Positions 3,600 to 27,584 of a DNA stretch of 32,000 nucleotides are shown piece by piece. Within the stretch, counting starts at the first letter, position 1. Each line of letters starts with the position of its first letter. Location: the NCBI GenBank assembly GCA_031316235.1, contig JALDRA010000001.1:1500001-1532000 (forward strand), given 5' to 3'. The stretch comes from Candidatus Scalindua sp. Its GTDB lineage: Bacteria; Planctomycetota; Brocadiia; Brocadiales; Scalinduaceae. The notes under the pieces are model-generated. The model made no database searches, was not told where the DNA came from, and saw nothing but the letters and a program-made list of their open reading frames with translations. Made by a program: the position numbers and the translations under genes.

Positions 3600-5058
3600 C
3601 GATGAATTGGGTTGGTGCGAGGTTCTCAAGTCCGTGCTGCAAACAAACGGTTTTGAGGTTGAATGTGAATCAAAGGCAGAAAATACTCTACGCGTAATCC
3701 ATTCTTCCCAGCCCGATGCTATTCTCCTGGACGTACTTTTTGGAGACATGAACAAGGGGAAAGATATCTTCAGAAATGTAAAACTGGAGTATCCACAACT
3801 TCCCGTCATCATGCTTACTCATACCGTTATCGAAGAAGATTTCCGGCTTGAAGACTACCCAGGGTGCGCATTTGCTTACGCCAAGAACCAGCTGGTCTCT
3901 GGCATGGATGAAACCTATGAGGGATTTGCTGATAAAATCAGGCGTGCGATAACAAATACCAAGACAACCGTCGAATCTCTGGAAAGAAATTTTAAATTTG
4001 TTGTCGGTAAAACAGAAGCAATGAAGAAAGTGTGCAGACAAATTATGAATGTTGCCGCGACAAATGCAACGATACTTATTACTGGTGAAAGCGGTGTCGG
4101 GAAGGGGATAATTGCGTGTGCAATTAAAGAGAAAAGTAAAAGAAACAATAAAAAATTCTTAACGAAAAGTTGTACAGATTTCCCAAACGAAAATTTGCTG
4201 ATAAGTGAATTGTTTGGCCACGAAAAAGGTGCCTATACGGGCGCTGAGAGTTGCCATGAGGGGATTTTTGAGGAAGCAACAGGAGGTACGGTATTTATCG
4301 ACGAAATAGGGGATGCGACACCGGAAACACAAGGAAAACTTTTAAGGGTCCTGGAAGAAAAAACTATTCGGAGAATGAAAGGGAACAAAGACATAGCAGT
4401 TGATGTAAGAATCCTCACCGCTACGAACAAACCCCTTGATGAATTGATAAAATTGGGGAAATTTCGAGAAGATCTTTTTCATCGCTTAAGCCAGTATAAG
4501 ATTCATCTCCCTCCATTAAGAGAAAGAAAGGAGGATTTACCGGAACTGCTCGCTTATTTTATAAGAAAACACAATAGAGACGACAACAAAAATATCCTCA
4601 TAGAAACAAAAAAGGGTCAAAGAGACTGCCTGCGACTGGATGTACTTGATTTGCTGTCGTCATATGACTGGCCCGGTAACATAAGAGAGTTTGACAATAG
4701 TGTTCGAACGGCTATGATTAATGCTGGTGACTCTAATATTTTGTTAACGGATTTTTTTGACATTACAATTGACCGGGAAAGAGATTGCTCTCTGTTTGAT
4801 GTTGAAAAACTGGTTAATGAAGTATTTGAGCAAAAGTGGCATGGAGAAGAAAAATGGAATAGTTTTGTACGAACGTATACCTCCAAAGAGTGGCAAAAGG
4901 AGTTCTTTGAACGCTGTATTGAAAGACTTAAAGAAAACAAAAAGAAGAAAAACCTCACATACCGCGATATAGCGGAGCTATTCGGAATTAATGAGAATAA
5001 TATGAGGCAGCGCATGCACGTAATTGGCATAAACTGGAAGGATAAGAAGAAATTATAA
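3565..5058 (+). CDS. Sigma54-dependent response regulator (NtrC-family bacterial enhancer-binding protein)
   Basis: REC domain (ILIVDDE, DAILLDVLF). AAA+ domain with Walker A GESGVGKG and Walker B VFIDEIGD. The sigma54-contact loop is ELFGHEKGAYTGA, so GAYTGA replaces GAFTGA. C-terminal HTH-like tail. TTG start lies 9 nt after GGAGG (3551-3555). Confidence 0.9.
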   Translation: MNCKKQKILIVDDELGWCEVLKSVLQTNGFEVECESKAENTLRVIHSSQPDAILLDVLFGDMNKGKDIFRNVKLEYPQLPVIMLTHTVIEEDFRLEDYPGCAFAYAKNQLVSGMDETYEGFADKIRRAITNTKTTVESLERNFKFVVGKTEAMKKVCRQIMNVAATNATILITGESGVGKGIIACAIKEKSKRNNKKFLTKSCTDFPNENLLISELFGHEKGAYTGAESCHEGIFEEATGGTVFIDEIGDATPETQGKLLRVLEEKTIRRMKGNKDIAVDVRILTATNKPLDELIKLGKFREDLFHRLSQYKIHLPPLRERKEDLPELLAYFIRKHNRDDNKNILIETKKGQRDCLRLDVLDLLSSYDWPGNIREFDNSVRTAMINAGDSNILLTDFFDITIDRERDCSLFDVEKLVNEVFEQKWHGEEKWNSFVRTYTSKEWQKEFFERCIERLKENKKKKNLTYRDIAELFGINENNMRQRMHVIGINWKDKKKL

Positions 5059-5065
5059 AACTCAT

Positions 5066-5110
5066 GATATACTCATCTCATACTGGATTTCGGATAAAAT
5101 CCGAGATGAA
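5066..5110 (+). repeat. Short copy (5' module only) of the dispersed hairpin repeat, between convergent gene ends; possible bidirectional terminator
   Basis: GATATACTCATCTCATACTGGATTTCGGATAAAATCCGAGAT is identical to the start of the 11327 copy and differs at only a few bases from the start of the 19760 copy. It contains the hairpin TCGGAT-AAA-ATCCGA, followed by a second hairpin GAGAT-GAA-ATCTC. Confidence 0.7.
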
Positions 5111-5115
5111 ATCTC

Positions 5116-6123
5116 TTATAACAGAGACTCAATGATCTTCTTTTTCGGTTCAAATGTGTTTAACTGGCTGAGTCCGAGATTTTCTACCGCAGCCTCTATC
5201 AGCTCCTCTTTCGACTGAGTTTTTATATAGAATGCCCCTGCATCCAGTAATGCTTTTTCGGGTACAAGTCCTACTATTTCACTTCCTGTAGCTTCTGTTC
5301 CGAATTCCCTGGCCAGCTTTTTTACCGTCTCAAATGTTGTATGTATCGATGTCTCCTCAAAATTTGTCAGATTGATTGATACCTGGGTAATATGGTAATC
5401 ATTGAGTTCTACTCCAATCGCCTTTACATATTTCAGTAATCCAGGGACTCTCATGCCCTTACCTTCCTTATTTTCAACCAGAGAACCGGACTCTCTTACC
5501 ATCCGTGCTATTTTATGAGCGATACGCACATCCGTCGTCTTGAGATTCACGTTATAGGCAATCAGGAAAAACCTTGCTCCAATTACCGTAGCACCAGATT
5601 TTCTGACTCTATCGTTGTATTCTGAAGGACCGTAATCAGGTCTCCACTCTTCTATTCTTTTCCTGAGATCTTCATATCCTCCCTGTCTGATATTTTCAAG
5701 GTTTTTTCGCTCTTTAAACCTTGCAGCTGATTCATACAAATACACGGGGATACCAAGCCTTTCTCCAACCTCCCTTCCAAGTTCATTTGCCAACAGTACA
5801 CATTCACCCATCGTTACGTTCGATACCGGTATGATGGGGCAGACATCTGTTGCTCCTATTCTTGGATGTTCGCCCTTCTGCGTTGACATATCAATGAGTT
5901 CTGAAGCCTTTGCTATTGCCTTAAATGCAGCCTCTTTCACAGAAGAAGGCTCCCCAACAAAGGTTACTACGGTCCTGTTATAGTCTTTGTCAGATTCACT
6001 GTTTAAAAGTTTTATATTCTCTGTTGAAACGATAGATGCCTCAATAGCATGTATCGTTTCAAGATTTCTCCCTTCACTGAAATTGGGTACACATTCTACA
6101 ATCTTTTTATTTGTCATAATCAT
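5116..6123 (-). CDS. ftcD: Glutamate formimidoyltransferase (formiminotransferase domain protein)
   Basis: 335-aa ORF with the N-terminal hallmark ECVPNFSEGR. The length fits the two-subdomain formiminotransferase fold. Confidence 0.85.
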   Translation of the reverse strand: MIMTNKKIVECVPNFSEGRNLETIHAIEASIVSTENIKLLNSESDKDYNRTVVTFVGEPSSVKEAAFKAIAKASELIDMSTQKGEHPRIGATDVCPIIPVSNVTMGECVLLANELGREVGERLGIPVYLYESAARFKERKNLENIRQGGYEDLRKRIEEWRPDYGPSEYNDRVRKSGATVIGARFFLIAYNVNLKTTDVRIAHKIARMVRESGSLVENKEGKGMRVPGLLKYVKAIGVELNDYHITQVSINLTNFEETSIHTTFETVKKLAREFGTEATGSEIVGLVPEKALLDAGAFYIKTQSKEELIEAAVENLGLSQLNTFEPKKKIIESLL

Positions 6124-7845: not shown

Positions 7846-8973
7846 CTATTCTCTTGATTCAAATTTTTTCATAAACCGGCGATCAATAAAATCCTTGATG
7901 ATAAAGGCAATCTTACCCTCCAGCACCAGCAGTTTTTTTCGTAAAATCCCGGTACCATCCCCCATATTGAAAATAAGCAGGTATTTTCCACCTGGTTTAA
8001 AAGTCTGGAGACCTGTTCCATCTAATGAAGCCATGAGGTTATGAAAAAGGACCGGGTTTTCCCGTACCGCGTAAACACCGACTTTGTCAAGCGGACGTCC
8101 TTTTAAATAAATACAATCACCTCCTCCGAATATTTCACTATACGTTGTGCACTGAAGGTACTTATTGACAAGGAGTTCACCATCAGGAGCTGTTGGCAAT
8201 CCTGATCTCTCAAAAACAGGTGACGGCTTTACCCCATGAGCGAGAAGAATTAAATCCTGAATATATTTCTGTCCAGACTCCATGGTGATCTCGCCAGTAT
8301 TGATTCCCGTTACAAAAGAGTGTTCCAGAATTTCAATTCCGCGCTTTGTCAAGGACCGAAAAATTCTGGTTCGTACGTTTTCCGGAAAACGATTCATGAA
8401 TTTTTCACCTGAGAAAATTGTTATTCTGGGCATATTTCTGACGAAAAATTTTCCCAGCCTCCAGATGTTACCTGCAATCTCAGCAGCAGAGGGTCCTCCA
8501 CCTATTATACCGATGGTTATTTTCCGCTGTGAGGCAAGTTCAAGAATCCGCTCCTGAAAAGATATAAGTTTTTCAATAGGTTTCACAGGAAAAATATCTC
8601 TGTCTACACCTTTTACGATTGTCATGGGTACATAACTACCGACATTACATGATAGTACGTCATAGGATATCGCTTCCCGGGATTCGAGGTATACGGTTCT
8701 GTCTATCGGATCAACACGGTTGACCTTATCCTGTATAAACACTCCTCCCTGTTTCACGACTATCCGTTTTGTCTCAAAACGGATTTCTGCGGGAGTATAT
8801 GTTTTTCCGAGCATCCCCGGACCCATACCCGAGTAATAGTGGTATTGAGATGGCCCGATAACTGTTACACGGTAGCCTTTTTCAATGAATTTGTGAAGGT
8901 TGGCCAGTGTTAACATGTGAGCGTGTCCACCACCGGCAATTACAAGATGTTTCCCCACTGTTACCTCCGTCAT
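7846..8973 (-). CDS. FAD/NAD(P)-binding oxidoreductase (pyridine nucleotide-disulfide oxidoreductase / Ndh-like)
   Basis: Two dinucleotide-binding motifs (VIAGGGHAH, IIGGGPSAAE) and a C-terminal GGGDC. It is co-directional with the upstream RiPP-like genes and 98 nt downstream of them. Confidence 0.8.
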   Translation of the reverse strand: MTEVTVGKHLVIAGGGHAHMLTLANLHKFIEKGYRVTVIGPSQYHYYSGMGPGMLGKTYTPAEIRFETKRIVVKQGGVFIQDKVNRVDPIDRTVYLESREAISYDVLSCNVGSYVPMTIVKGVDRDIFPVKPIEKLISFQERILELASQRKITIGIIGGGPSAAEIAGNIWRLGKFFVRNMPRITIFSGEKFMNRFPENVRTRIFRSLTKRGIEILEHSFVTGINTGEITMESGQKYIQDLILLAHGVKPSPVFERSGLPTAPDGELLVNKYLQCTTYSEIFGGGDCIYLKGRPLDKVGVYAVRENPVLFHNLMASLDGTGLQTFKPGGKYLLIFNMGDGTGILRKKLLVLEGKIAFIIKDFIDRRFMKKFESRE

Positions 8974-9071: not shown

Positions 9072-10358
9072 TCATTTACCACTCATCCATCTTTTAAGGA
9101 TTACGTCTTCTTTGATGCGTGAAACCTCCAACACTATTCTCCCGTACCGTAAAAGAAGTATAAACGGATGAGCCATATAATAGAGATAGAGCCTGGTCGA
9201 GGAGAGAGGTACAGAATATCTCTCAGAAATAAATCCTGGATCGGGAAAAATATAATTCCTTAAAATCCCGGCCTTTTCGCGACAGGTGTGAGCAGCCTGT
9301 AATTGGATGATCTTGGATGGTACTACAGAGTGAGAATCTTCTCTCCTGAGGATTTTCCTGCACATGATGGAGACGAGTTCCCTGTCTCTCCCTTCCGGCG
9401 CAACACAGTCAACTGTTTTACGAATCGTATCATCATTTTCTCCCAGGATTTTCCCTACAATGCAGAGGGTCATAAAAACGGGATCAGCAATTCCATACTG
9501 CTCAGCCTTATGCCTGAGTCTCTCCCCACATATCTTATCGTGAAAGTATCTGATAGTTTGAAAGATATCATGTAGCTGTATAAGTGCCCCCCTGCTCGTA
9601 AAACCTGCACCAAAGCCTTGATATCGATTTTGGTAGCGATGTTTTAAAAAATGGAGACAGAGATGAAAAATGCAGTCTTCCGGACTGAGGATCTGTGCAG
9701 GGAGGCCTGAAATTGTAACCACCATCGCTTCCTTCCTCCACTTCGCAATCATCTCGTTATCAAAATCTCGGATTCGAGACGGATGTATTTTGTTTGCTAT
9801 ATGCCAATGTACTTCTACCGGAACCCTCTTTTCCCGATGGATATAGTTCATGTGATGATGGCGATTCCTTTGATACCAACCAGAAGTTTCTCTCTCATCG
9901 AGAAAATAACCTGCACCGTAGAGTATGCGTTCTGCATCGGGAAGAGCCTGTTTCTTTACGAGGAGATCGATATCACTCATCGGCCTTAACCCAATATCGC
10001 CATACACCGTTTGAGCCAATGCTGCACCCTTGAGTATGATAACTTCTATCCCTCCATTGTCAAACGCCTCTAAAATCCTTTCCAATTCTGCATACAGAAA
10101 CATATTTCTGGCTACCGTATCGTAGTAAGCGGCCTTTAACTTTTCCATAAACTCTACGGGAATTGAGTCGGTTTCCTGGAACGACTTTAAAGAATTGTAG
10201 AGTAATGGCCCTATACCGTGCCAGGATGCAGACGTCCAAATCTCGTCCCAATTAATGGTACCCTTTAGCAGCTCCTTTACCTTTGCCCTTGTATCCTCTG
10301 AAATTTCTGTTCGCGTAGAGCAATGCAAGAGTTGGTTTTCATAAGATAGATTCAACAT
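9072..10358 (-). CDS. Nucleotidyltransferase-family protein (PF14907 / NTP_transf_5-like)
   Basis: 428-aa ORF. VIILKGAALAQTVYGDIGLRPMSDIDLLVKK matches the LKG...R...DIDLLV core of this family. It starts 9 nt after the B2-like gene. Confidence 0.7.
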   Translation of the reverse strand: MLNLSYENQLLHCSTRTEISEDTRAKVKELLKGTINWDEIWTSASWHGIGPLLYNSLKSFQETDSIPVEFMEKLKAAYYDTVARNMFLYAELERILEAFDNGGIEVIILKGAALAQTVYGDIGLRPMSDIDLLVKKQALPDAERILYGAGYFLDERETSGWYQRNRHHHMNYIHREKRVPVEVHWHIANKIHPSRIRDFDNEMIAKWRKEAMVVTISGLPAQILSPEDCIFHLCLHFLKHRYQNRYQGFGAGFTSRGALIQLHDIFQTIRYFHDKICGERLRHKAEQYGIADPVFMTLCIVGKILGENDDTIRKTVDCVAPEGRDRELVSIMCRKILRREDSHSVVPSKIIQLQAAHTCREKAGILRNYIFPDPGFISERYSVPLSSTRLYLYYMAHPFILLLRYGRIVLEVSRIKEDVILKRWMSGK

Positions 10359-10367
10359 AGATAGCTT

Positions 10368-10937
10368 TCAAAGATTATCAACCGAATTTCTCTCTTCCTC
10401 TGGAAAGATATACGTTATCTTGTAGCTCTTTACTGCCTCGCTATTTTTTTCAAGAAAGATTCTTCCCTTATAAAGGAGCCATGCATGTCCTTCAAGTCTC
10501 TTTTGTGGAGAACCAGCCGGCAACATCCTGTTAAATCTTACTCCAAGGCAGAGACTTACCTCCATTCCAGACTTCCGTAAAAGGTGGTAGAGTACTAAAG
10601 ATCGTTTGAGGCAGGGATTTTTACCCGTAAAATATTTCAGACTCAGGACGTAGTCCGTAAACCGAACAACTTTATCCTGAAATTCCTCACTATCCGAACT
10701 CTTATTGATCTTCAAGGTTCTCGGTGTAAAAACTCTCATTAATCCCGGGAGAGAAAAAAATCTCAGGACCAGAGGCAATGTGGTTATGAAAAAGAGTATT
10801 TGTATAAAGATCCAGATATCTTCGACTGTTTTGAAGTTTTTTCTCATTTTTTTGTAAACGTTCACCGCAGAGTTTTCTCTATTTTTTTTGAATGAGTGCT
10901 TGTACGGAAACCCTGTGTTTGAACGAAAACTACCCAT
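10368..10937 (-). CDS. Transglutaminase-like cysteine peptidase, lasso B2-type (PF13471-like), with an N-terminal TM helix
   Basis: NPCLKRSLVLYHLLRKSGMEVSLCLGVR...GHAWLLYKGRIF has the Cys...His(AW) arrangement of McjB-C/B2 leader peptidases. The start overlaps the PqqD-like stop by 8 nt (ATGGGTAG). An alternative start is at 10847. Confidence 0.75.
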   Translation of the reverse strand: MGSFRSNTGFPYKHSFKKNRENSAVNVYKKMRKNFKTVEDIWIFIQILFFITTLPLVLRFFSLPGLMRVFTPRTLKINKSSDSEEFQDKVVRFTDYVLSLKYFTGKNPCLKRSLVLYHLLRKSGMEVSLCLGVRFNRMLPAGSPQKRLEGHAWLLYKGRIFLEKNSEAVKSYKITYIFPEEERNSVDNL

Positions 10938-11217
10938 CTACAACCTTTACTAATTTTTCACGAACAAGCTCGCGGACAAGAGCGAGAACACTTTCCCCTG
11001 CCTTTTCAGGTGAAACATCAAACTCTTCCAGAAGCTTTGTCCCTATCTCATCAAGTGTTAAGTCTCCACTCAACAGTCCCCAGATACGGACTCCTGTCTC
11101 ATTGAGGGTAAAGTACGCCTTGGTCCCCAGATGAAGAAGAACGGCCTCTTTCCCCTCCTCTAATTCCGTTACCACAACATCTGTATCGGGTTTGACTTTC
11201 TGATGTAACTCTATCAT
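10930..11217 (-). CDS. PqqD-family RiPP recognition element (lasso B1-type chaperone)
   Basis: 95-aa ORF with typical PqqD size and pattern (EAVLLHLGTKAYFTLNETGVRIWGLL...LDEI...L..EFDVS.E....V..L..L). The RBS AGAGGT lies about 9 nt upstream of the ATG. Confidence 0.8.
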   Translation of the reverse strand: MIELHQKVKPDTDVVVTELEEGKEAVLLHLGTKAYFTLNETGVRIWGLLSGDLTLDEIGTKLLEEFDVSPEKAGESVLALVRELVREKLVKVVDG

Positions 11218-11326
11218 TTATATTACCTCTTTAAAATATGTTCGGCCAGGAATGAACACGAATTATAATGTGATAATTCTAAATAACGATACTTTCGTAT
11301 TCAAGCCGTTCTTTGCCAAAATTTAG

Positions 11327-11490
11327 GATATACTCATCTCATACTGGATTTCGGATAAAATCCGAGATAAAATTGAGCGCGTAAAATCCTCGGCGCTTTT
11401 TGTCCGGGGATACCTTCACCAGGATTTGGTTTCCAGTAAAACCAAAAGCCAAATCGGTTTTAGTACAATTGCCAACTTTAAGCCAGTAGC
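11327..11490 (+). repeat. Full-length copy (~165 bp) of the dispersed hairpin-rich repeat, inserted between the PqqD-like and radical-SAM genes
   Basis: By-eye alignment to 19760-19925 gives about 8 mismatches plus one 3-nt indel over the first ~140 nt. Internal hairpins are TCGGAT-AAA-ATCCGA, TCCTCGG...CCGGGGA and AAAACC...GGTTTT. Confidence 0.8.
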
Positions 11491-11532
11491 TTTTATTTTC
11501 TAATCATTCGAGTAAATTCGTGACCAAATTAT

Positions 11533-12531
11533 TTATACCTTCCAAACAGAACTCGACCAGGGACTTTCGTGATCATCTTTCAGCCAACCTACTTTATTAA
11601 AATAATTCAAGCAATAAAAGCAGGGAAAATAGTCTAAATCTTTATTTTTACCTTTACGGTAGCGTTCACGCTTATCCTGGTGAAACGTTTTATTCATTTG
11701 AATAAAACGTTTCAGTGCCTCTGCAAAACTCATCATATCCAGTTTGCCTATTATATCTCCACCTGTTGCACCGTTTCCATAACCAGACAGGTGACAGCAT
11801 AAGGTGACATTACCCCTCCAGTCAATGTTCAACTCCTTTGACTGAAGCGGACTGCAGGGGAAGAGATTGGTCGTATGATATCCAGGAGCCATGATTATGG
11901 GCATGGGAAAGGATTGTTGAAGTCCTCCGATCAATCCCTCGATCACCACACACTCCTCAGGAGAAATGGTAAGGCCCTTTTCAACATTCCCGGGTGTCGG
12001 CATGAGATGGCAAAACCTCAACCCACGACTCCCCAGTTTCGTTGCAAGCTCAGCCATCTCCTTTAATTCTCCCTTATTGTAAAACATAACGGTCGTATTA
12101 ATGGTAAAGGGAATATCTTTTACCATGCAGATACTGAAAGCCTTCATGAGTCGACGATATGCCCCCCTCCCTCGCACCTTATCGTGTACCTCCTCCCTGG
12201 CACTATCCAGACTAAATGTAATCCCTCTCAGTCTGTCACGATAGGGAAGTAACTGGCTATACACGTCAGTGAAATTCCATCCGTTTGTGACGAAGCCAAA
12301 GTTATATCCAGCCTCATTCACATTCTTGAGTATTTCATTGAATCGGGGGTGAAGTGTCGGTTCTCCGCCCGTAAAAGAGAGGTGATCAAACCCGTGGTCC
12401 CTGGAGTTTTGGAGGATCTTATCCAGAATCTCTGTTTCAAGATTTTCTCCGTCAGCACTATGTCTAGTATCAAGACAGTGCTGGCAACTTACATTACAGC
12501 GATTTGTTAGTTCGATTACGATACTCGGCAT
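11533..12531 (-). CDS. Radical SAM enzyme with a C-terminal SPASM/twitch-like Cys-rich domain (peptide maturase candidate)
   Basis: CX3CX2C motif CNVSCQHC and the SAM-binding motif SFTGGEPTL. C-terminal cysteines lie in CSPLQ...NVTLCCHLSGYG...YFPCFYCLNYF. Confidence 0.85.
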   Translation of the reverse strand: MPSIVIELTNRCNVSCQHCLDTRHSADGENLETEILDKILQNSRDHGFDHLSFTGGEPTLHPRFNEILKNVNEAGYNFGFVTNGWNFTDVYSQLLPYRDRLRGITFSLDSAREEVHDKVRGRGAYRRLMKAFSICMVKDIPFTINTTVMFYNKGELKEMAELATKLGSRGLRFCHLMPTPGNVEKGLTISPEECVVIEGLIGGLQQSFPMPIIMAPGYHTTNLFPCSPLQSKELNIDWRGNVTLCCHLSGYGNGATGGDIIGKLDMMSFAEALKRFIQMNKTFHQDKRERYRKGKNKDLDYFPCFYCLNYFNKVGWLKDDHESPWSSSVWKV

Positions 12532-12549
12532 TTAATGTAAATCTTAATT

Positions 12550-12752
12550 TCTAATGTCTAAATCCTAAATAAATTCAAAGACATACTATTAAGATGTAAA
12601 GGGGTGCAGTACAATACTGGTTAAAGATTTCGGTGTATTGTTACCCAATCCAATAACATCTTTAGCAAATTTGAATGTTCTGTCTTCTAAGTCCTAATGT
12701 TTTGAACCTTGTATTTTTGTCATTTGACATTGTTTAGGATTTAGTGCTTAGA
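12550..12752. repeat. AT-rich insert of ~200 bp bounded by imperfect 22-bp inverted repeats (MITE-like) in the kinase-rSAM spacer
   Basis: TCTAATGTCTAAATCCTAAATA (12550-12571) matches the reverse complement of 12731-12752 at 18/22 positions. The perfect 12-bp core is CTAAATCCTAAA / TTTAGGATTTAG. Confidence 0.45.
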
Positions 12753-12812
12753 TTTTAGAATTTATAATAATTAATTCGTCGCCTTCCGAATCTCCATTCT
12801 CAATTATAGGGT

Positions 12813-13823
12813 TCACACTTTAGGTCTTGGCACTATCCCTGATAACACTTCGGTAATCTTCTCCGGTTCTTCATACAAATCACGACCCGCAAGGAGTTGA
12901 TAACTATCTGTCTGATAAACAAGTTGCTTAAGGGCCTCAAGATGATTCTTCGCCGTCTCTCTGTTAAACAGTAGAGATGCACTCTGCCTTGTCAATCTGA
13001 CAAGTGCAGATGTTGGATCAACCGGGATCAACCTGCTTTCTGGTTCCGACACTATGCTTGTAAATAACAATATCTTTGGTACCGCCTGAGAACAAAATTG
13101 ATCGGGATACAGAGACGTCACATCTAAAAACCGCTTTGTGCCCGCTCCGCTTGTTGATTCTTCAAGATAAGGCAAAATCTCGGGATAGTGACGTACTAAT
13201 TGGGGATCGAGATAAAATTTATTTCGAAAGGCAAAAACTTCTACTCTGCTTTCAAAACACTTCATCAAAAGGGCATCATCTGAGACATAGTGCCACCCCT
13301 GGTTGACAAGACTGAGTGTCGCAGTGGATTTTCCACTACCGGAATCTCCCAGAAGCAGAAACCCTAACCCGTCCCTGACAAGCGAGGCAGCATGGAGTTC
13401 ATAGACACCTCGGGGTGAAAGAAGATGGATAAGGCCGATAAGAAAGAGATTATACTTTGAGAGAGATGTTTTTTCCTGAAAAGAGCCATGGATGGTAAGA
13501 ATACCTGAACCTTCATAAGGATTTAACTGAAACAGGGATGATCCGTCTGTAATGTAAACAGTATCATCTAACCTGAAAATTGATACGTCGTAGCATGAAA
13601 ACGGCACTGATGCAGCATCAGGGCTCTTGACAGGAACTTCTGTAGAAGTAAATTGAAGGTTCAGGTGAACGGGTGTGCCTGTATCGCTCAACTTCATAAA
13701 AGGAAAGGGGTTAAAGAGTTTCTGTATTTCATCTTCAACCCCATTCCCTTCACACCGAACCGCAATGGTCAGTCCATACAGGGAATAATGACAGATACTC
13801 GCATTATCCATCCGCTTCCCCAT
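12813..13823 (-). CDS. HPr kinase-related serine/threonine kinase (HprK-like, RiPP-associated type)
   Basis: LHAASLVRDGLGFLLLGDSGSGKSTATLSLVNQGWHYVSDD matches the HprK C-terminal P-loop region. It starts 26 nt after the precursor-like ORF. Confidence 0.75.
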   Translation of the reverse strand: MGKRMDNASICHYSLYGLTIAVRCEGNGVEDEIQKLFNPFPFMKLSDTGTPVHLNLQFTSTEVPVKSPDAASVPFSCYDVSIFRLDDTVYITDGSSLFQLNPYEGSGILTIHGSFQEKTSLSKYNLFLIGLIHLLSPRGVYELHAASLVRDGLGFLLLGDSGSGKSTATLSLVNQGWHYVSDDALLMKCFESRVEVFAFRNKFYLDPQLVRHYPEILPYLEESTSGAGTKRFLDVTSLYPDQFCSQAVPKILLFTSIVSEPESRLIPVDPTSALVRLTRQSASLLFNRETAKNHLEALKQLVYQTDSYQLLAGRDLYEEPEKITEVLSGIVPRPKV

Positions 13824-13849
13824 CTTTCCGGCATCTGCTCATACCAACG

Positions 13850-14128
13850 TCACGGTGTAAATGTGCCAAAAAAACCGGCCGTAATCTTCGCAGCGTCCCC
13901 GTGTTTCACAAGTTTCGGTTCAATAAACGTTAATTTAGGTACCGTAAAAAACTTTTTTGTCTGCGAAGCGTCCGTGCTCATAGCTTGAATCTTTTTTCTT
14001 CCAACTGGCTGTTTTTCTCCCATACCTTTTTCATCCTCCATGTTTTTAGCTGGTGGGCGACTCTCAAATGTAAAGACCGCCCTATCCAGATTGGCATTTA
14101 CGTAAAAGTCTTCCCCTGTTCCCTTCAT
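13850..14128 (-). CDS. Candidate RiPP precursor peptide (maximal 92-aa ORF; alternative starts at 14041, 14023 and 13981 give 63, 57 and 43 aa)
   Basis: It is the first gene of the operon. The C-terminal 43 aa are MSTDASQTKKFFTVPKLTFIEPKLVKHGDAAKITAGFFGTFTP, which contain FIEPKLVKHGDAAKITA|G, matching the lasso leader consensus YxxPxLx3Gx5Tx followed by a core Gly. GGAGG lies 11 nt upstream of the 14023 ATG. A promoter-like site would make the 14128 ATG leaderless. Confidence 0.55.
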   Translation of the reverse strand: MKGTGEDFYVNANLDRAVFTFESRPPAKNMEDEKGMGEKQPVGRKKIQAMSTDASQTKKFFTVPKLTFIEPKLVKHGDAAKITAGFFGTFTP

Positions 14129-14136
14129 TTGGTAAC

Positions 14137-14165
14137 ATTATATACGAAACTGCCGTGCAATTCAA
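14137..14165 (-). promoter_or_regulatory. Sigma70-like promoter candidate for the RiPP-like operon
   Basis: On the minus strand, TTGAAT (14165-14160) is followed by a 17-nt spacer and then TATAAT (14142-14137). The predicted TSS near 14130 is 2 nt upstream of the ATG at 14128. Confidence 0.35.
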
Positions 14166-14597: not shown

Positions 14598-14679
14598 TGA
14601 TTGAGAAAAACGTAAAGTTCATGTGCAACCTGTTACAGAAAACCGAAAATTATTTTGTGATGACATACACATACATAAG

Positions 14680-15342
14680 ATGAATACCACCCGTTACAAC
14701 GCCGTTATATTTGACCTGGACGGTACCTTACTCAACACCCTGGAAGACCTGGCCAACTCTGTGAACCGTGTCCTTGTGAAAAACGGGTTCCCCACTCACC
14801 AGACAGATGCATACCGCTATTTTGTTGGAGACGGGGCACTCGAACTTGTCAATCGAGCATTGCCTGCTGAGAAGAGAATTAACAGCATCATATCTCAGTG
14901 CCTTGAGTCATTTCGCACCGACTACACAGAGAACTGGAACATCAAAACTGCCCCTTATGAGGGAATTGCGGAGATGCTGGATGCACTCAAAGCACTCAGG
15001 GTAAAGATGGCGATATTATCAAATAAGCCTCATGAACACACAAAGCGGTGTGTGGCAGAACTTTTACCACAGTGGGATTTCGAAATCGTACTTGGACAAC
15101 GCAGCGGGATACCCCGAAAACCGGATCCGACAGGTGCATTGGAGGTGGCTGAGCACGTAAACATTGCACCGTCTGAGTTCCTCTACCTTGGTGATACAGA
15201 CATTGACATGAAGACGTCTGTTACTGCCGGTATGTTTCCCGTGGGAGCACTCTGGGGTTTCAGAACTGCGGAGGAGTTAAAGGAGAGTGGTGCGCGGGCA
15301 TTGATCGCGCATCCGTTAGAGATTTTACCCCTGATGAAATGA
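14680..15342 (+). CDS. HAD-superfamily hydrolase (phosphoglycolate phosphatase-like)
   Basis: Motif I is IFDLDGTLLNT, motif II is ILSNKP, and motif IV is GDTDIDM. The ATG at 14680 is preferred over the track's GTG at 14623. Confidence 0.85.
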   Translation: MNTTRYNAVIFDLDGTLLNTLEDLANSVNRVLVKNGFPTHQTDAYRYFVGDGALELVNRALPAEKRINSIISQCLESFRTDYTENWNIKTAPYEGIAEMLDALKALRVKMAILSNKPHEHTKRCVAELLPQWDFEIVLGQRSGIPRKPDPTGALEVAEHVNIAPSEFLYLGDTDIDMKTSVTAGMFPVGALWGFRTAEELKESGARALIAHPLEILPLMK

Positions 15343-17437: not shown

Positions 17438-17692
17438 ATGATTAAAAAAAAATTGTTTAATAAGTTGATTTCTGGTTCAAAAAATATTAGATTCTCAGAA
17501 GTAACTGCATGTGCTGAGTCATTTGGTTTCCATTTGGACCGTATTAATGGCAGCCACCATATTTACTACCATCAAGACGTGCCAGAATTATTAAATTTAC
17601 AGAACATAAAAGACAAAGCCAAACCATATCAGGTAAAGCAATTATTACAACTTATCGAAAAATATAATCTTCAATTGGGAGAGAAGAAATGA
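17438..17692 (+). CDS. hicA: Type II toxin HicA-family mRNA interferase
   Basis: 84 aa. GFHLDRINGSHHIY matches the HicA G-x-x-x-x-R-x-x-GSHH core. Its stop overlaps the hicB start (ATGA). Confidence 0.8.
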   Translation: MIKKKLFNKLISGSKNIRFSEVTACAESFGFHLDRINGSHHIYYHQDVPELLNLQNIKDKAKPYQVKQLLQLIEKYNLQLGEKK

Positions 17693-17907
17693 AAGATTAT
17701 CATATTAATATATTTTATAGTGATGAAGATAATGGATATATTGCGGACATACCGGATTTAAAACATTGTTCTGCTTTTGGTGCAACCCAAGAAGAAGCAC
17801 TTAAGGAGGCTTTAAAGGCAAAAGACGCATGGCTTGAGACAGCTCGATCAAGGAATAAACCTATACCAAGCCCTCAATACCGCCCCGTAATTTACCAAGT
17901 TGTTTAA
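17689..17907 (+). CDS. hicB: Type II antitoxin, HicB family
   Basis: 72 aa. YHINIFYSDEDNGYIADIPDLKHCSAFGATQEEALKEALKAKDAWLE is a typical HicB N-terminal fold sequence. It is translationally coupled to hicA. Confidence 0.8.
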   Translation: MKDYHINIFYSDEDNGYIADIPDLKHCSAFGATQEEALKEALKAKDAWLETARSRNKPIPSPQYRPVIYQVV

Positions 17908-20127: not shown

Positions 20128-21886
20128 ATGAACCGTGGCACAGTAAAATTAGATCCATTGGCCAAAGGATTACTCCAAGGAGTAACCGTCCGCCCAATTT
20201 CCCGCCAGGAACGAAATGGATGGGACAAACTGATGCAACAGCATCATTACCTTGGGTACCGTGCTTTCGTAGGAGAATCAATCCGTTATATAGCCGAGTC
20301 AAATGGACGTTGGGTAGCTCTTATCGGCTGGGCATCTGCCGCCTTTCAATGTGAGGTTCGAGATAAATGGATTGGGTGGCCTCCTATAATAAAAAACCAA
20401 CGCCTTCGATTTTTAGCAAATAACACTCGCTTCTTAATCCTACCAGGGATACACATACCAAACCTCGCTTCCCGAATTCTAGCCCTTAATCTCAAACGAT
20501 TGTCTCAAGATTGGAATGGCATGCATGGACATCCAATTTATCTTGCAGAGACGTTTGTAGATTACCGCCATTTCAAGGGTACCTGTTACAAGGCAGCTGG
20601 ATGGACATTTTTAGGATACACCAAGGGATATTCCAAATCGTCCCATGGCTATATTCGGCACAATAAACCCAAGATGATCTTTGTACACACTGTTGGATCA
20701 AGGAGCCGTGAATATCTGAATTTCCCTGAATTTAGCCTGGAATCAAAAAAGGAGCTGAAACCAATGAAATTATCTTTAAAAAATGCTGAAGCGCTTACCA
20801 AATTTTTGTTACAAATCCCCGAGCATCGTAAGCCAAGAGGCGTTCGCCACAGGAGGCGTTCTATTTTAGCAGTTTCTATTTGTGCTATCATGTGCAATGC
20901 CTGGAGCTTTGCTGCTATCGCGGAATGGGGTCAGCGCTGTTCACAAACCATGCTCAAGCGACTCTCATGCCGTTACAACACAAAAACAAAGCAGTACATG
21001 CCTCCGAGTGAACCCACTATCAGGAGATTTTTACAGAATGTGGATGCAGAATCTGTTGATAAGGCACTTTCGAGTTGGTTTCAATCCATTTGTGACAAAG
21101 ACTTGCCTATTGCGGTTGATGGAAAAACCCTTTGTGGCGCGAGACAATCTAACGGTCAACAAGTTCATTTGCTTTCCGCGTTTCTTCATGAGCAGGGAAT
21201 GGTACTTGCACAAACTCAAGTAGATCGCAAAACAAATGAAATACCGATGGTACCAATACTATTTGATGATGTAGATTTACAAGACCGTGTGGTTACTTTT
21301 GACGCCTTACACACACAGAAGGAGACAGCCCGTTATTTGGTCGAAGATAAAAAGGCTGAATATGTATTCACTGTCAAAGATAATCAAAAGACTTTAAAAC
21401 AAGACATTGTTGACTTAAATCTCAACTCTTTTCCCCCCTCAACACATAACTACTGAAAAAGGTCATGGCCGCATTGAAATCCGCAAGATCTGGACAAGTG
21501 CTGAGTTAACAGGGTACCTTGATTTTCCAAATCATAATCAGGTATTCTGTATCCATAGAAAATTCACAGAAGTCAAAACAGGTAAAAAGACGGAAGAAAT
21601 CGCTTACGGAATTACCAGCTTAACTCAAGAAAAGGCAGACCCGAAAACGGTTCTTAAAATCACCAGGGGGCACTTGGGAATAGAAAATAGTCTTCATTAT
21701 GTACGTGACACAGCCTTCAATGAAGATCGTTCGCAGATACGTACTCGCAATGCTCCACAGTCTATGGCTGCTTTGAAGAATCTAACGATTGGGCTTTTTC
21801 GTTTTTTCAAAGTAACAAATATTGCCAGGGCTCTTAGAGATTTTGCAGCAAGACCTTTTCTTGCACTTCAATTACTTCGGTGGTAA
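20128..21886 (+). pseudogene. DUF4338-like domain fused to an ISAs1-family DDE transposase, interrupted by a +1 frameshift (IS ends not identified)
   Basis: The N-terminal part (HHYLGYRAFVGESIRYIAE...AAFQCEVRDKWIGW...NNTRFLILP...NLASRILAL...ETFVD...CYKAAGW) looks like DUF4338. The ISAs1 core (DGKTLCGA...FDALHTQ) follows. The frame stops at TGA 21454-21456, and the conserved C-terminus EKGHGRIEIR...HLGIENSLHYVRDTAFNEDRSQIR continues in the +1 frame to 21886. A C6 run lies at 21433-21438. Confidence 0.8.
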
Positions 21887-22530: not shown

Positions 22531-24498
22531 ATGGATTTATCTCAACACAACATGATTGTAAACTTTATCTGGGGTATCGCGGATGATTGCCTCCGGGATG
22601 TCTATGTACGGGGTAAATACCGTGATGTAATTCTCCCTATGACCGTTATCCGCAGGATTGATGCGGTATTGGAACCTACAAAACAGGCTGTATTAAAGAT
22701 GAAGGAGCAGCTGGATAAGGCAAAGGTTACCAATCAGAACCCCGCCCTCTGTCAGGCATCTGGTCAGGCATTTTATAATACCAGTCATTTTTTGCTTAGA
22801 GACCTGAAATCCCGCACGAAACAGCAGCAGCTCAAAGCAGACTTCGAGGCCTATCTTGACGGCTTTTCACCAAATGTACAGGAAATCCTGGAAAAATTCA
22901 AATTCCGCAATCAGATACCCACCATGGTAGAGTCTGATATTCTCGGCTCAGTTATCGAAAAATTTACAAACCCGGAAATCAATCTGAGCCCCAATCCTGT
23001 TCTGGATACAAAAGGTGAAGTACGTCTGCCGGCCCTTGATAACCATTCCATGGGGACCATATTTGAAGAGCTGATCCGCAAATTTAATGAAGAAAATAAC
23101 GAAGAGGCGGGTGAACACTTTACTCCACGCGATGTGGTAAAGCTTATGGCAAGGCTTATCCTTGAACCTGTCGCATCAAGGATTGAATCAGGCACCTATC
23201 TGGTTTATGACGGGGCTTGCGGTACCGGAGGCATGCTGACGGTTGCGGAAGATACCCTGAAGGATCTGGCTGCACAGCAGAAGAAAGAGGTTGTCATTCA
23301 TCTCTACGGACAGGAATCTCAACCGGAAACCTACGCCATACTCAAGGCTGACCTTCTTTTAAAAGGCGAAGGTTCAGAGGCGGAAAATATGAAATTCGGT
23401 TCTACGCTTTCAGCCGATAGCCATCCGTCAAGAGAATTTGACTTCATGCTTTCAAATCCTCCCTATGGCAAGAGCTGGAAAAACGATCAGGAACGTATGG
23501 GCGGCAAAAAAGATATCAGAGACTACCGCTTTGTAATCCAATATAAAGACAATCCAGAATACAGGATGATTACGCGTTCCAGTGACGGCCAGATGCTCTT
23601 CCTGGTTAATAAGATATCCAAGATGAAACACAATACCGTATTGGGAAGCCGGATTGCAGAAGTCCATAACGGATCGTCCCTCTTTACCGGAGACGCAGGG
23701 CAGGGAGAGAGTAATATCCGCCGCTGGATTATTGAGAACGACTGGCTGGAGGCAATCGTCGCCCTGCCTGAAAATATGTTTTATAACACCGGTATTGCAA
23801 CCTATATCTGGCTGCTTTCCAACAGGAAAACCGATGAAAGAAAGGGCAAGGTGCAGCTCATTGACGCAAGCGGCTGGTATGTCCCCCTGCGGAAGAACCT
23901 CGGCAAAAAGAACTGCGCATTTTCAGATAAACAGATTGCGTACATCTGTGACCTTATCATGCATCCCGGAGAAACCGAACAGTCAAAGATATTTCCCAAC
24001 GAGGCCTTCGGGTACAACAAGATAACCGTAGAGCGTCCGCTTCGATTGAAGGGGATTGATGCGCAGAAGGCATACTCGTCTAAAGAGATTAAAGAACTGG
24101 TGGAGAAGGGAATGACAGATGAAACCGGAACACCCGTTATCCGTAAGATTCATAAATCTATAAAACCCGATCCGTTACACGGCCTCTTTGAAGCCGTTAT
24201 CGGCAATAAGAAGTGCACTGTCGAATACCAGCCCGATACAAATCTGCGTGATACCGAACAGGTCCCGCTTCTGGAAGCAGGAGGCATTGAGACCTTCTTT
24301 AAACGGGAGGTTCTGCCTTATGTCCCGGACGCATGGATTGATGAAAGCAGAACGCAGATCGGTTATGAAATATCGTTTACCAGATATTTCTACAAACCCG
24401 CACAGATGAGGACACTCGATGAGATCATGGCGGATATCCGGGCAATAGAGAAAGAGACCGACGGATTGTTGAATGATATTGTTGGGGAGGAGAACTAA
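22531..24498 (+). CDS. hsdM: Type I restriction-modification system methyltransferase subunit
   Basis: AdoMet motif VYDGACGTGGML, catalytic motif LSNPPYGKSW, and an HsdM_N-like N-terminus. It is followed by hsdS. Confidence 0.92.
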   Translation: MDLSQHNMIVNFIWGIADDCLRDVYVRGKYRDVILPMTVIRRIDAVLEPTKQAVLKMKEQLDKAKVTNQNPALCQASGQAFYNTSHFLLRDLKSRTKQQQLKADFEAYLDGFSPNVQEILEKFKFRNQIPTMVESDILGSVIEKFTNPEINLSPNPVLDTKGEVRLPALDNHSMGTIFEELIRKFNEENNEEAGEHFTPRDVVKLMARLILEPVASRIESGTYLVYDGACGTGGMLTVAEDTLKDLAAQQKKEVVIHLYGQESQPETYAILKADLLLKGEGSEAENMKFGSTLSADSHPSREFDFMLSNPPYGKSWKNDQERMGGKKDIRDYRFVIQYKDNPEYRMITRSSDGQMLFLVNKISKMKHNTVLGSRIAEVHNGSSLFTGDAGQGESNIRRWIIENDWLEAIVALPENMFYNTGIATYIWLLSNRKTDERKGKVQLIDASGWYVPLRKNLGKKNCAFSDKQIAYICDLIMHPGETEQSKIFPNEAFGYNKITVERPLRLKGIDAQKAYSSKEIKELVEKGMTDETGTPVIRKIHKSIKPDPLHGLFEAVIGNKKCTVEYQPDTNLRDTEQVPLLEAGGIETFFKREVLPYVPDAWIDESRTQIGYEISFTRYFYKPAQMRTLDEIMADIRAIEKETDGLLNDIVGEEN

Positions 24499-24574: not shown

Positions 24575-24588
24575 AGAGGTGGTATAAA

Positions 24589-26180: not shown

Positions 26181-26300
26181 GCAGGACACACTAGCAATTA
26201 CTTTTGAAGGTTGAAACGATAATTCTCGATAATGGTATTTTACTGAGATTTCAGATTACAGATAAGAAGTTGAAATTGGTTTGAGAGATTGGAAAGAAAC

Positions 26301-26960: not shown

Positions 26961-26973
26961 GGGAGTTTTTGCT

Positions 26974-27574: not shown

Positions 27575-27584
27575 TGGTTTTATC

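Follow-up and report, generated by a model that had tools for sequence, protein, structure and literature searches.

Organization of the locus

The window, that is, the whole 32,000-nucleotide stretch of Candidatus Scalindua DNA analyzed here, carries on its minus strand a cassette in which a small precursor peptide gene is followed, in order, by genes for an HprK-like kinase, a Twitch-type radical SAM (rSAM) enzyme, a PqqD/B1 protein, a B2 cysteine protease and an NTP_transf_5 nucleotidyltransferase. Its features are:

14137..14165, minus strand: promoter-like TTGAAT-17 nt-TATAAT upstream of the precursor gene, 10/12 matches
14035..14039, minus strand: Shine-Dalgarno-like GGAGG lying 11 nt ahead of the ATG of the 57-aa form, read from the sequence
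13850..14023, minus strand: precursor peptide gene, 57 aa plus stop, MGEKQPVGRKKIQAMSTDASQTKKFFTVPKLTFIEPKLVKHGDAAKITAGFFGTFTP
13877..14023, minus strand: leader, residues 1-49, with a tandem FxxPKL half-motif and then the full lasso motif F33..P36.L38...G42.....T48.A49
13853..13876, minus strand: inferred core GFFGTFTP, residues 50-57, boundary from the T(-2) rule
12813..13823, minus strand: HprK-like kinase, 336 aa, with PF07475, TIGR04352/04355 and ScmC matches, all under cutoff
12771..12797, minus strand: GNAT acetyltransferase remnant (MEIRKATN and stop), the gene being intact at the same position in related Scalindua clusters
11533..12531, minus strand: rSAM enzyme, 332 aa, PF04055 at 78 bits, CX3CX2C at C12/C16/C19
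10930..11217, minus strand: discrete PqqD-type RiPP recognition element, 95 aa, B1-like, PF05402 at 68 bits
10368..10937, minus strand: B2 transglutaminase-like cysteine protease, 189 aa, NF033537 (lasso B2) at 48.4 bits, cutoff 33
9072..10358, minus strand: NTP_transf_5 nucleotidyltransferase, 428 aa, PF14907 at E=2.6e-58

Catalytic residues were conserved throughout the cassette. In the kinase, the Walker A motif G159xSGxGK165, H144 and D182-D183 were at least 90% conserved among 56 homologues. C109, H151 and E163 of the B2 protease, whose start overlaps the PqqD stop by 8 nt, and G111, D129 and D131 of the NTP_transf_5 protein were also conserved among homologues; a PDB sequence search with the latter protein gave no match. 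The best NCBIfam matches of the PqqD protein were two lasso PqqD models (51.8 and 46.7 bits, both under cutoff). As proposed in the preliminary description, a PqqD/B1 protein and a B2 protease accompany the precursor; this is supported for PqqD by the Pfam match and for B2 by a score above the curated cutoff. The kinase, PqqD and rSAM proteins fall under the cutoffs of every named NCBIfam family, and their functions are thus transferred from distant relatives. The L002 orthologue of the GNAT remnant matches PF00583.

The rSAM enzyme has no fused recognition domain and possesses a Twitch-like C-terminus (CX18C...CX2C), with C135, C226, C245, C246, C304 and C307 invariant. The preliminary description had called it a SPASM enzyme adjacent to the precursor. 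Both points need revision: the kinase gene sits between the two, and the C-terminal pattern is limited to C226, C245/246 and C304xxC307, the full seven-Cys SPASM motif being absent. No NCBIfam family was reached at cutoff, and the best 25 of 75 matches, all of them far under cutoff, included no triceptide/FxsB model. An AF2 model (pLDDT 85) gave BlsE, SkfB and SuiB, and also viperin, PqqE and DesII, as best Foldseek matches. These and the PDB matches are generic Twitch/SPASM enzymes (TM ~0.6) and are not diagnostic, so an assignment of chemistry from structure was rejected.

A search for a lasso cyclase (PF00733, asparagine-synthetase-like) gave no match among the ORFs of the 32-kb window, nor in five homologous loci annotated with Pfam; the 80 rSAM-centered loci likewise yielded no conserved cluster of ORFs of cyclase size. 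In addition, no exporter, ABC domain or signal-peptidase domain was detected in any window ORF.

Precursor peptide

The minus-strand translation given in the preliminary description proved exact. Its start had been left among forms of 43, 57, 63 and 92 aa; comparison of homologues resolves it as the 57-aa form, which begins with the minus-strand ATG at 14023-14021 and ends with the stop at 13850. The N-terminus of this form, MGEKQPVG, aligns with MLEKQSVG and MSEKISAG from other anammox genera. The Met of the 43-aa form is replaced by Lys in the nearest relative, the ATG of the 63-aa form is out of frame in Scalindua locus L001, and the 92-aa extension is excluded because in L001 the frame is closed by a stop codon lying 7 codons ahead of the Met. 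AAGGAGG is kept at the equivalent position in L001 and L002, and the putative promoter has the same hexamers and spacing in L001. The core codons differ from those of L001 by five synonymous and two non-synonymous changes. A profile built from homologues without any Scalindua sequence matched the precursor ORF at E=3.6e-22, its sole match across the window. An Rfam scan of the precursor region and 5′ UTR gave no match, and a search for further precursors in the intergenic gaps of the window found none.

The segment F-I-E-P-K-L-V-K-H-G-D-A-A-K-I-T-A fits the lasso leader consensus [FYW]xxPxLx3Gx5Tx, as had been proposed, with spacing F(-17)xxP(-14)xL(-12)x3G(-8)x5T(-2)x; a half-motif, FTVPKL, indeed lies 7 residues ahead of it. 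This consensus occurs once in the six-frame translated window, against 0.05 matches expected per shuffled window. NCBIfam lasso leader models matched the precursor weakly (18.5 bits, under the cutoff of 19), and the lasso precursor model lasso_cyano was matched weakly by 27 of 34 family members. In alignment A2 (34 homologues), P36, L38, G42 and T48 of the leader and F51 and F55 of the core are invariant, and PxLx3Gx5T is carried by all of the best 120 database matches (120/120). These data bear out the view that the ORF encodes a RiPP precursor whose leader is genuinely of the lasso type.

The tail GFFGTFTP contains no Asp, Glu or Cys, in agreement with the preliminary description. Cleavage before G50 (G36 in the earlier numbering) is predicted solely by the T(-2) rule. 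Across the family, T-x and the FF motif are separated by anything between 0 and 8 residues, and in F(S/V)xPFSP variants the T-x rule would place the first conserved Phe at -1, in the removed part.

Occurrence and gene linkage

Homologous precursors formed 1230 clusters at 90% identity and 254 representatives at 50% identity, and were named "hypothetical protein" wherever the source supplies any name. Hosts include anammox Planctomycetota, Nitrospirota, Acidobacteriota, Chloroflexota, Trueperaceae and others, with protein-level conservation of the precursor spanning at least eight phyla. Among 109 distinct cores, the consensus was G(76%)-F-F(92%)-G(88%)-x-F-S/T(76%)-P(88%). Acidic residues (Asp/Glu) at core positions 7-9 were limited to six of these cores and Cys to two, and the final Pro is absent in certain members (e.g., ...FFGTF-COOH). 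Examination of homologous clusters, which had been suggested as a check, strongly supported the original proposal in that a comparable small ORF with the conserved motif and an aromatic-rich short core was found. A Ser/Thr, overlooked in the preliminary description, is conserved beside the second Phe (104/109 distinct cores).

The genes for precursor, kinase, rSAM, PqqD, B2 and NTP_transf_5 occur in this order in anammox genera, Nitrospira, Thermodesulfovibrionia and Desulfosarcina, and the same-order cassette was also found in Acidobacteriota, Dehalococcoidia, Acidimicrobiia and Trueperaceae. When loci were sampled from the rSAM side, 47 complete loci contained the kinase in 43 cases, PqqD in 41, NTP_transf_5 in 34 and B2 in 28; B2 was thus undetected within 6 kb of the rSAM gene in 40% of complete loci, and NTP_transf_5 in 28%. 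Sampling from the precursor side recovered the kinase in 38/42 and the rSAM in 29/33 loci. The association of precursor, kinase and rSAM therefore holds from either sampling side.

A second point missed in the preliminary description is that no gene is linked to the rSAM gene as tightly as that of the kinase: the kinase gene lies immediately upstream in 43/47 complete loci, often with overlapping stop and start codons.

Membership in the cluster was also weighed for two flanking genes of the window, one encoding a HAD phosphatase (14623-15342) and the other a Pyr_redox oxidoreductase (7846-8973), and was rejected in each case, as 0/160 other loci have either gene near the cassette. Some metagenome loci carry a 1.7-1.9 kb insert between kinase and rSAM, which was also dismissed as a biosynthetic gene, as it resembles a small nucleotidyltransferase/HEPN-type toxin-antitoxin pair and may represent such a pair.

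Relationship to known systems

The closest known systems are the paeninodin/pseudomycoidin lasso peptides and the linear polyphosphorylated peptides (LPP), neither of which has an rSAM enzyme or a GFFGxF(S/T)P-type core. In the former, the linear lasso precursor is phosphorylated on a Ser by HprK homologues, after which a nucleotidyltransferase attaches a hexose to the phosphate (PMC8498205). The family described here shares with the phosphorylated and phosphoglycosylated lasso peptides (paeninodin, pseudomycoidin and proteobacterial clusters) the [Y/W/F]xxPxL...T(-2) leader, PqqD/B1, B2, an HprK-like kinase acting there on the linear precursor, and an NTP_transf_5 nucleotidyltransferase (PMC8498205). 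However, it lacks the cyclase and the acceptor Asp/Glu and has an rSAM enzyme instead; its core is highly conserved and only ~8 residues long, an ABC exporter is usually missing, and its host phyla are different. In addition, the candidate phospho-acceptor is a Ser/Thr beside Phe, usually penultimate, whereas phosphorylated lasso peptides use a C-terminal Ser.

LPP (Popov et al., Nat Commun 2026; PMC13381572) are likewise a cyclase-less offshoot of the lasso pathway. They combine a YxxP-type leader with a discrete recognition protein, and they also have an NTP transferase and a kinase of the HprK-like type. Their kinase, LppK, polyphosphorylates internal core Ser residues and refuses Thr in place of Ser (PMC13381572). 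LPP clusters are restricted to Bacillota and have a SpI/SipW-type leader peptidase, an MsbA-like exporter and no rSAM, whereas the present family has B2 in place of that peptidase and, in addition, a Twitch rSAM enzyme. LPP cores are long and variable (precursors of 35-200 aa), in contrast to the short conserved FFGxF(S/T)P core here, and the leader FxEPKLTF(I/V)EPKLTKHGDATKIT does not match the LPP consensus YxxPxVLxHQxIxFETxxS (PMC13381572).

The pairing of an rSAM enzyme lacking a fused recognition domain with a discrete PqqD-family chaperone is common to this cassette and the PQQ and mycofactocin systems (PqqE/PqqD and MftC/MftB), as are a short, highly conserved C-terminal motif as target and the lack of a dedicated exporter. 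PqqE and MftC were among the better NCBIfam and PDB matches of the rSAM enzyme, with NCBIfam scores far below equivalog level (66.2 against a cutoff of 381, and 83.2 against 265, respectively). The accessory genes differ: kinase, B2 and nucleotidyltransferase here, PqqB/C/F or MftD/E/F there. A cofactor role would be pure speculation.

The triad of HprK-like protein, PqqD-like protein and rSAM is also found in the SynChlorMet (SCM) cassette (NCBIfam ScmC/ScmD/ScmE/ScmF), which to our knowledge has been defined bioinformatically only. The window proteins scored well below equivalog level for ScmC (25.8, cutoff 125), ScmD (33.4, cutoff 100), ScmE (72.5, cutoff 400) and ScmF (79.3, cutoff 400), and the Pfam ScmC model matched homologous kinases weakly or faintly. 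SCM contains two rSAM enzymes, whereas the present cassette has one, together with B2, NTP_transf_5 and a lasso-type leader. Triceptides (3-CyFE) similarly pair an rSAM enzyme with an aromatic-rich short motif; however, the present enzyme reaches the cutoff of no triceptide maturase family and lacks the full SPASM motif, and an Omega-X-X3 unit is not clearly conserved in the cores.

Proposed pathway and alternatives

The ORF is, in our judgment, probably a 57-aa precursor (49-aa leader and ~8-aa core) of a widespread, cyclase-less RiPP family derived from the lasso toolkit and matured by the following pathway. What was directly observed comprises the genes with their linkage and conserved catalytic residues, along with the conserved leader and core sequences; the enzymatic steps are proposals. 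By homology to lasso B1, the discrete PqqD/B1 protein would bind F(-17)xxPxL of the leader and present the peptide. The HprK-like kinase would then phosphorylate the Ser/Thr flanking the second Phe (T54 or T56 here), a step suggested by the characterized lasso and LPP kinases and the conserved Ser/Thr. NTP_transf_5 may decorate the phosphate, perhaps by adding a hexose in the manner of PsmN in the pseudomycoidin pathway; since about a quarter of loci lack this gene, its role would be accessory. The Twitch-type rSAM enzyme would abstract a hydrogen within the conserved x-F-G-x-F motif, with an intramolecular crosslink involving a Phe as the most likely outcome, and the B2 cysteine protease would finally cut off the leader after T-x. 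One point against this pathway is that LppK rejected Thr for Ser, yet many cores, including GFFGTFTP, offer only Thr.

Several other readings were weighed against the same evidence. If a cyclase were encoded at another site in the genome, the product could be an ordinary lasso peptide. This would account for the lasso-type leader motif, B1 and B2, but it is effectively refuted and retains very little probability: eight residues are too few for ring and tail, the core has no Asp/Glu (and only the six cores noted above have one at positions 7-9), and no cyclase was found in any of the sets of loci searched. The earlier claim that the precursor cannot yield a lasso peptide is thus upheld, because both cyclase and acceptor Asp/Glu are lacking. 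A chance ORF that is never translated is effectively refuted by the comparative evidence, and virtually nothing speaks for it, given conservation over at least eight phyla, the synonymous excess in the core, the conserved position ahead of the kinase, and the conserved promoter-like and Shine-Dalgarno elements. The remaining readings differ in the reaction of the rSAM enzyme. The preliminary description guessed at a triceptide-like aryl-C(beta) cyclophane on F-G-x or F-(S/T)-P (loss of 2 Da), which is one of several possible chemistries and which we regard as conceivable but doubtful. Aromatic residues are the most conserved core positions, and the best matches of the enzyme in sequence and structure include SkfB and SuiB, which modify peptides. 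When the motifs are compared with Omega1-X2-X3, however, X3 of F-G-x is variable and is Gly, hence without C-beta, in ~9% of cores; the F-(S/T)-P motif, although its Pro is 88% conserved, is missing in certain members; and both the lack of a triceptide/FxsB-type model among the top NCBIfam matches and the incomplete SPASM motif argue against this chemistry.

YydG, EpeE and PoyD are rSAM epimerases that convert L- to D-residues. A mass-neutral, non-crosslinking change of this type, giving a linear, phospho-decorated, LPP-like peptide with D-residues, appears unlikely. It is compatible with the single auxiliary-cluster architecture of the enzyme and with the precedent of LPPs, which are cyclase-less linear phosphopeptides with the same recognition, kinase and nucleotidyltransferase modules, and YydG was among the PDB sequence matches (E=3e-10); however, this similarity is confined to the generic rSAM core (residues 3-148), SkfB and PqqE match better, and nothing points specifically toward epimerization. 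It is also rather improbable that the enzyme acts not on Phe but on phospho-Ser/Thr or on a phosphate-attached sugar or nucleotide provided by NTP_transf_5, with the kinase supplying its substrate. The tight coupling of kinase and rSAM genes, often with stop and start codons overlapping, favors such a target, and since the top structural matches include BlsE, viperin and DesII, which use nucleotide-linked or sugar substrates, the substrate need not be peptide backbone or side chains. On the other hand, about 28% of complete loci retain the rSAM gene without NTP_transf_5, the rSAM-PqqD pairing resembles the peptide-directed PqqE-PqqD and MftC-MftB, and the invariant Phe residues would be left without explanation.

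Implications

RiPP classes are defined by a class-defining modification. In the present family the complete lasso recognition and cleavage apparatus (leader, B1 and B2), along with the kinase and nucleotidyltransferase as tailoring modules, has been joined to an rSAM enzyme that takes the place of the cyclase. The family allows one to ask whether phosphorylation gates the radical reaction, and its short, well-defined substrate of ~8 residues is suitable for finding what the rSAM enzyme does to a Phe-Gly-x-Phe motif.

Cross-phylum conservation of a core is uncommon among RiPPs and hints at a physiological role in nitrogen-cycle bacteria of environmental importance. Together with the usual lack of an exporter, it suggests that the product has a conserved function in physiology and is not a fast-evolving antibiotic. 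We tentatively extend the proposed pathway to a reading that we consider unlikely as a whole: the product might be a small rSAM-crosslinked Phe peptide to which a sugar or nucleotide is joined through phosphate, or a molecule released from such a peptide, that serves as a conserved intracellular factor. Such a factor might be a cofactor, signal or envelope component and not an antibiotic. On this reading, the pairing of a kinase with a subsequent rSAM step would amount to a novel RiPP chemistry, with phosphorylation priming the radical reaction. The reading is suggested by the nearly identical core, usually without an exporter, from anammox Planctomycetota to Nitrospira, Acidobacteriota and Trueperaceae.

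Within the literature searched, the precursor family is apparently undescribed: a full-text search, whose coverage was incomplete so that an earlier description is possible, found no paper on the precursor-kinase-rSAM cassette. More than 1,000 members have been overlooked, probably because almost all of them occur in uncultured or enrichment-only lineages (for example, anammox bacteria, Nitrospira and Acidobacteriota). In the RRE-Finder paper, ~300 lasso-type recognition proteins co-occurring with rSAM enzymes were set aside as false positives of the lasso model (PMC7470986).

Precursor gene and its start codon

The preliminary description had proposed a lasso-type precursor in a minus-strand open reading frame (ORF) within 13850-14128. 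Its translation corresponded exactly to the last 43 residues of this ORF, and FIEPKLVKHGDAAKITA does match the leader motif [FYW]xxPxLx3Gx5Tx, which has a single match in the six frames of the window and a mean of 0.05 matches per shuffled window. Likewise, Asp, Glu and Cys are all absent from the tail, GFFGTFTP. The start, previously left undecided among 43, 57, 63 and 92 aa, could be assigned by homology. The N-terminus MGEKQPVGRKK aligned to MLEKQSVGRKE (Scalindua) and MSEKISAGHIG (Brocadia, Kuenenia, Jettenia). In L001, the locus of the closest relative (Scalindua SCAELEC01), Lys replaces Met of the 43-aa form, the ATG of the 63-aa form is out of frame, and a stop 7 codons upstream of Met rules out the 92-aa extension. 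Therefore, the precursor is 57 aa long (14023-13850). A Candidatus Scalindua sp. "hypothetical protein" (P0223) matched the 92-aa ORF with 100% identity.

In leader residues 24-49 (13877-13954, minus strand), the recognition unit is tandemly duplicated (F-x-x-P-K-L-T followed by F-I-E-P-K-L). Most family members keep this arrangement; Trueperaceae sequences lack it and have a single YxxPxL. The tandem unit might allow two recognition-protein-dependent enzymes to be bound simultaneously.

Cassette organization

Features of the cassette in the window (functional assignment is above threshold for B2; all others are sub-threshold or family-level homology)
14165-14137, minus strand: promoter-like site TTGAAT-17-TATAAT, shared by the most closely related Scalindua loci
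Upstream of the ATG at 14023, minus strand: GGAGG, kept in the closest Scalindua loci
12813-13823, minus strand: HprK-like kinase, downstream of the precursor
11533-12531, minus strand: radical SAM enzyme (rSAM), downstream of the kinase
10930-11217, minus strand: PqqD-family protein; best NCBIfam matches are two lasso B1 models, both below cutoff
10368-10937, minus strand: lasso-type B2 protease (NF033537, 48.4 bits, cutoff 33)
9072-10358, minus strand: NTP_transf_5 nucleotidyltransferase (E=2.6e-58)

The PqqD, B2 and NTP_transf_5 genes overlap or almost abut. Pfam scans of all other sizeable ORFs in the 32 kb detected neither an asparagine-synthetase-like lasso cyclase nor an ABC transporter. 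Neither the HAD phosphatase gene nor the Pyr_redox gene on its flanks recurs beside the cassette in 160 other loci; both were rejected as cluster members, and the cassette was therefore placed at ~9072-14165.

Gene linkage was assessed by two independent samplings, which agreed. Where rSAM was flanked by 6 kb or more on each side (47 loci), profile searches detected the kinase in 43, PqqD in 41, NTP_transf_5 in 34 and B2 in 28; 25 loci had all four. The median gap between kinase end and rSAM start was ~12 nt, mostly within a few bases, and overlap was common. A metagenome scan seeded with the precursor alone, counting loci with enough downstream sequence, found the kinase in 38/42 and rSAM in 29/33. 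The precursor, kinase, rSAM and PqqD form the obligate set; B2 and NTP_transf_5 are frequent. Among five Pfam-annotated neighborhoods of different lineages, no lasso cyclase was present and one had an ABC transporter pair.

Some loci (9 of 80, in addition to L087 and L088) carry a GNAT acetyltransferase as an accessory gene. It is intact between kinase and rSAM in two Scalindua loci (L001 and L002); the gene is deleted in the window genome, where 12797-12771 (minus strand), within the kinase-rSAM gap (12532-12812), reads MEIRKATN*, the first seven GNAT acetyltransferase codons.

Distribution and conservation

A genome scan seeded with rSAM yielded 80 loci, mostly from metagenome-assembled genomes. 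The window rSAM was 88% identical to that of Scalindua sp. AMX11, and tblastn searches with the window proteins showed that gene order is kept in anammox genera, Nitrospira, Nitrospiraceae, Thermodesulfovibrionia, Desulfosarcina and other Desulfobacterota, Ignavibacteriales, Dehalococcoidia, Acidimicrobiia, Acidobacteriota, Bryobacteraceae, Novipirellula and Trueperaceae. Small ORFs preceding the kinase were clear homologs of one another. Their alignment, suggested in the preliminary description, revealed that the leader P, L, G and T and two core Phe were invariant among 34 precursors, as was the initiator Met.

A precursor profile searched against 5.8 billion proteins matched 1230 clusters at 90% identity; where named in the source, these were always "hypothetical protein". 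PxLx3Gx5T was present in all 120 matches listed. Exhaustive HMMER searches gave 254 precursors as 50%-identity representatives; FFGxF occurred in 115 of the 147 inspected, and the others had close variants (e.g., SFGxFSP, VFGTFSP, WFGDFSP). A profile from which all Scalindua sequences had been left out matched the window ORF (E=3.6e-22). Of the changes separating the eight core codons of the window from those of L001, 5 are synonymous and 2 non-synonymous. These comparisons indicate that the precursor ORF is translated and has evolved under purifying selection.

Core peptide and leader boundary

The consensus of 109 distinct cores was G(76%)-F-F(92%)-G(88%)-x-F-[S/T](76%)-P(88%). In 104 cores, the second Phe has Ser or Thr as its immediate neighbor on one side or the other; Cys occurs in 2 cores, and an acidic residue (Asp/Glu) within core positions 7-9 in 6. 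The spacer from leader Thr to first Phe was 0 to 8 residues and the tail past the second Phe 0 to 11 residues (mode 2 for both). In some loci (L005, L032), precursors of another type, F(S/V)xPFSP(IPN), are also encoded beside the same single rSAM. In this type, cleavage one residue after the penultimate leader Thr (the T-x rule) would put the first Phe at position -1; for this reason, we place the boundary before GFFGTFTP only by inference.

Pyrinomonadaceae and Thermoanaerobaculia harbor a sister cassette (L045-L067), whose rSAM shows 33-38% identity. The precursors of this cassette, ...FVEPAISVPVDVLEATT-FFQxxxSGATN (also written ...VDVLEATT-FFQxxxSGATN), keep the leader spacing and FF dipeptide and lack the second Phe. 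A sulfotransferase-like accessory gene was also observed there.

Orphan precursors occur as well. Scalindua sp. AMX11 has a second one (L084, 9001-9177; core AGFFGAFSP) between genes for an NHL-repeat protein and an aminotransferase, with cassette genes absent within 9 kb on either side; L094 and L106 contain similar orphans.

Enzymes and proposed pathway

Judged from their catalytic residues, the cassette enzymes look active. In the kinase, conservation is 90% or higher at the Walker A motif (G159xSGxGK165), at H144 and at D182-D183. C109, H151 and E163 of B2 are conserved, with a spacing like that of the Cys-His-Asp triad of lasso B proteins, and so are G111, D129 and D131 of NTP_transf_5. 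PqqE and MftC depend on a discrete chaperone for recognition. Because the cassette rSAM begins straight at CX3CX2C (C12, C16, C19), it carries no recognition domain of its own and presumably relies on the separate PqqD protein. Additional invariant Cys (C135, C226, C245, C246, C304, C307) form a CX18C...CX2C pattern, which suggests a Twitch-like domain with one auxiliary cluster rather than a seven-Cys SPASM domain.

In lasso systems, the B1 protein binds YxxPxL in the leader and hands the peptide to B2 for cleavage after T-x. HprK homologs transfer phosphate to the hydroxyl of a Ser while the precursor is linear (PMC8498205), and in pseudomycoidin a nucleotidyltransferase adds hexoses to the precursor phosphate (reviewed in PMC8498205). 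By analogy, PqqD would recognize the leader, a Ser/Thr flanking the second Phe would be phosphorylated, NTP_transf_5 could optionally decorate that phosphate, rSAM would modify the x-F-G-x-F motif, and B2 would remove the leader; we infer this order, the acceptor residue and the rSAM reaction from such parallels. Since kinase-rSAM coupling is tight, phosphorylation may be a prerequisite for, or a participant in, the radical step.

The rSAM chemistry is left unspecified by family, sequence and structure matches. The enzyme missed the cutoff of every NCBIfam family (best scores 89.6 versus 380 for tungsten-cofactor maturase and 83 versus 265 for MftC). SkfB, PqqE and BlsE were the best PDB sequence matches, and the AF2 model (pLDDT 85) best matched BlsE, SkfB, SuiB, viperins and PqqE at TM ~0.6. 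A crosslink involving Phe is the likeliest single outcome, although at less than even odds; its triceptide-like cyclophane subset is by itself a rather unlikely product. Epimerization or another non-crosslinking change appears somewhat less likely still, and action on a phosphate-linked group improbable, with some other reaction taking up the remainder; this is a rough split, grouped otherwise than the listed rivals and not additive with them.

Relationship to known systems

The core had been considered too short and acceptor-less for a lasso; both were tested, and with no cyclase in the window or the five annotated neighborhoods and no acceptor residue in the core, a lasso peptide is effectively ruled out. 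LPPs, a cyclase-less Bacillota family, have a recognition protein, HprK-like kinase, NTP transferase, SpI peptidase and exporter (Popov et al., 2026; PMC13381572), and their kinase polyphosphorylates an internal core Ser (PMC13381572). LPP membership was also ruled out: in contrast to LPPs, the cassette lacks SpI peptidase and exporter, has another leader consensus and a short conserved core, and contains rSAM. Curated models place it outside the SCM, PQQ and mycofactocin families and, with no triceptide model among the best 25 of 75 NCBIfam matches, probably outside the triceptide family. On sequence grounds, the cassette appears to be a hybrid, sharing recognition, cleavage and phospho-tailoring with lasso systems and the pairing of rSAM with a discrete chaperone with PqqE/MftC systems.

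No description of this cassette was found in the full-text literature, whose coverage was incomplete, and neither the precursor nor the rSAM is modeled in NCBIfam (June 2026). The RRE-Finder paper noted that ~300 lasso-type discrete recognition proteins co-occur with rSAM enzymes and classed them as false-positive hits to its lasso model (PMC7470986). The family is a candidate new RiPP class made of known modules. Its core is conserved across phyla whose rSAM enzymes share 40-60% identity. This conservation, together with the usual absence of an exporter, is atypical of antimicrobial RiPPs, and the product may have a conserved physiological role.

Variation and genomic context

The L001 kinase (5057-5899) shares only 41% identity with the window kinase, compared with 80-95% for rSAM, PqqD, B2 and NTP_transf_5, and a swap of the kinase gene between two subtypes appears to have taken place. 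In Kuenenia stuttgartiensis (L081, CP049055), several DDE transposase insertions break up the cassette; gene calling yielded no kinase between rSAM and the precursor, and PqqD is followed only ~6 kb downstream by B2 and NTP_transf_5. An insert between kinase and rSAM in L126 (9050-9666), with similar ones in L121, L125, L127 and L138, looks like a small nucleotidyltransferase/HEPN-type toxin-antitoxin pair. In two unrelated loci (L086, 6464-8608; L088, 5463-7517), a large FG-GAP repeat protein is encoded directly upstream of the precursor, which may be coincidence or an unrecognized accessory gene. Elsewhere in the window, we observed a HicA/HicB toxin-antitoxin pair (17438-17907), a DruA-domain/DDE transposase (20128-21456) and a type I restriction-modification system (22531-30986; hsdM, hsdS, hsdR), with Schlafen AlbA_2 and IS200-like Y1 transposase genes between hsdS and hsdR.
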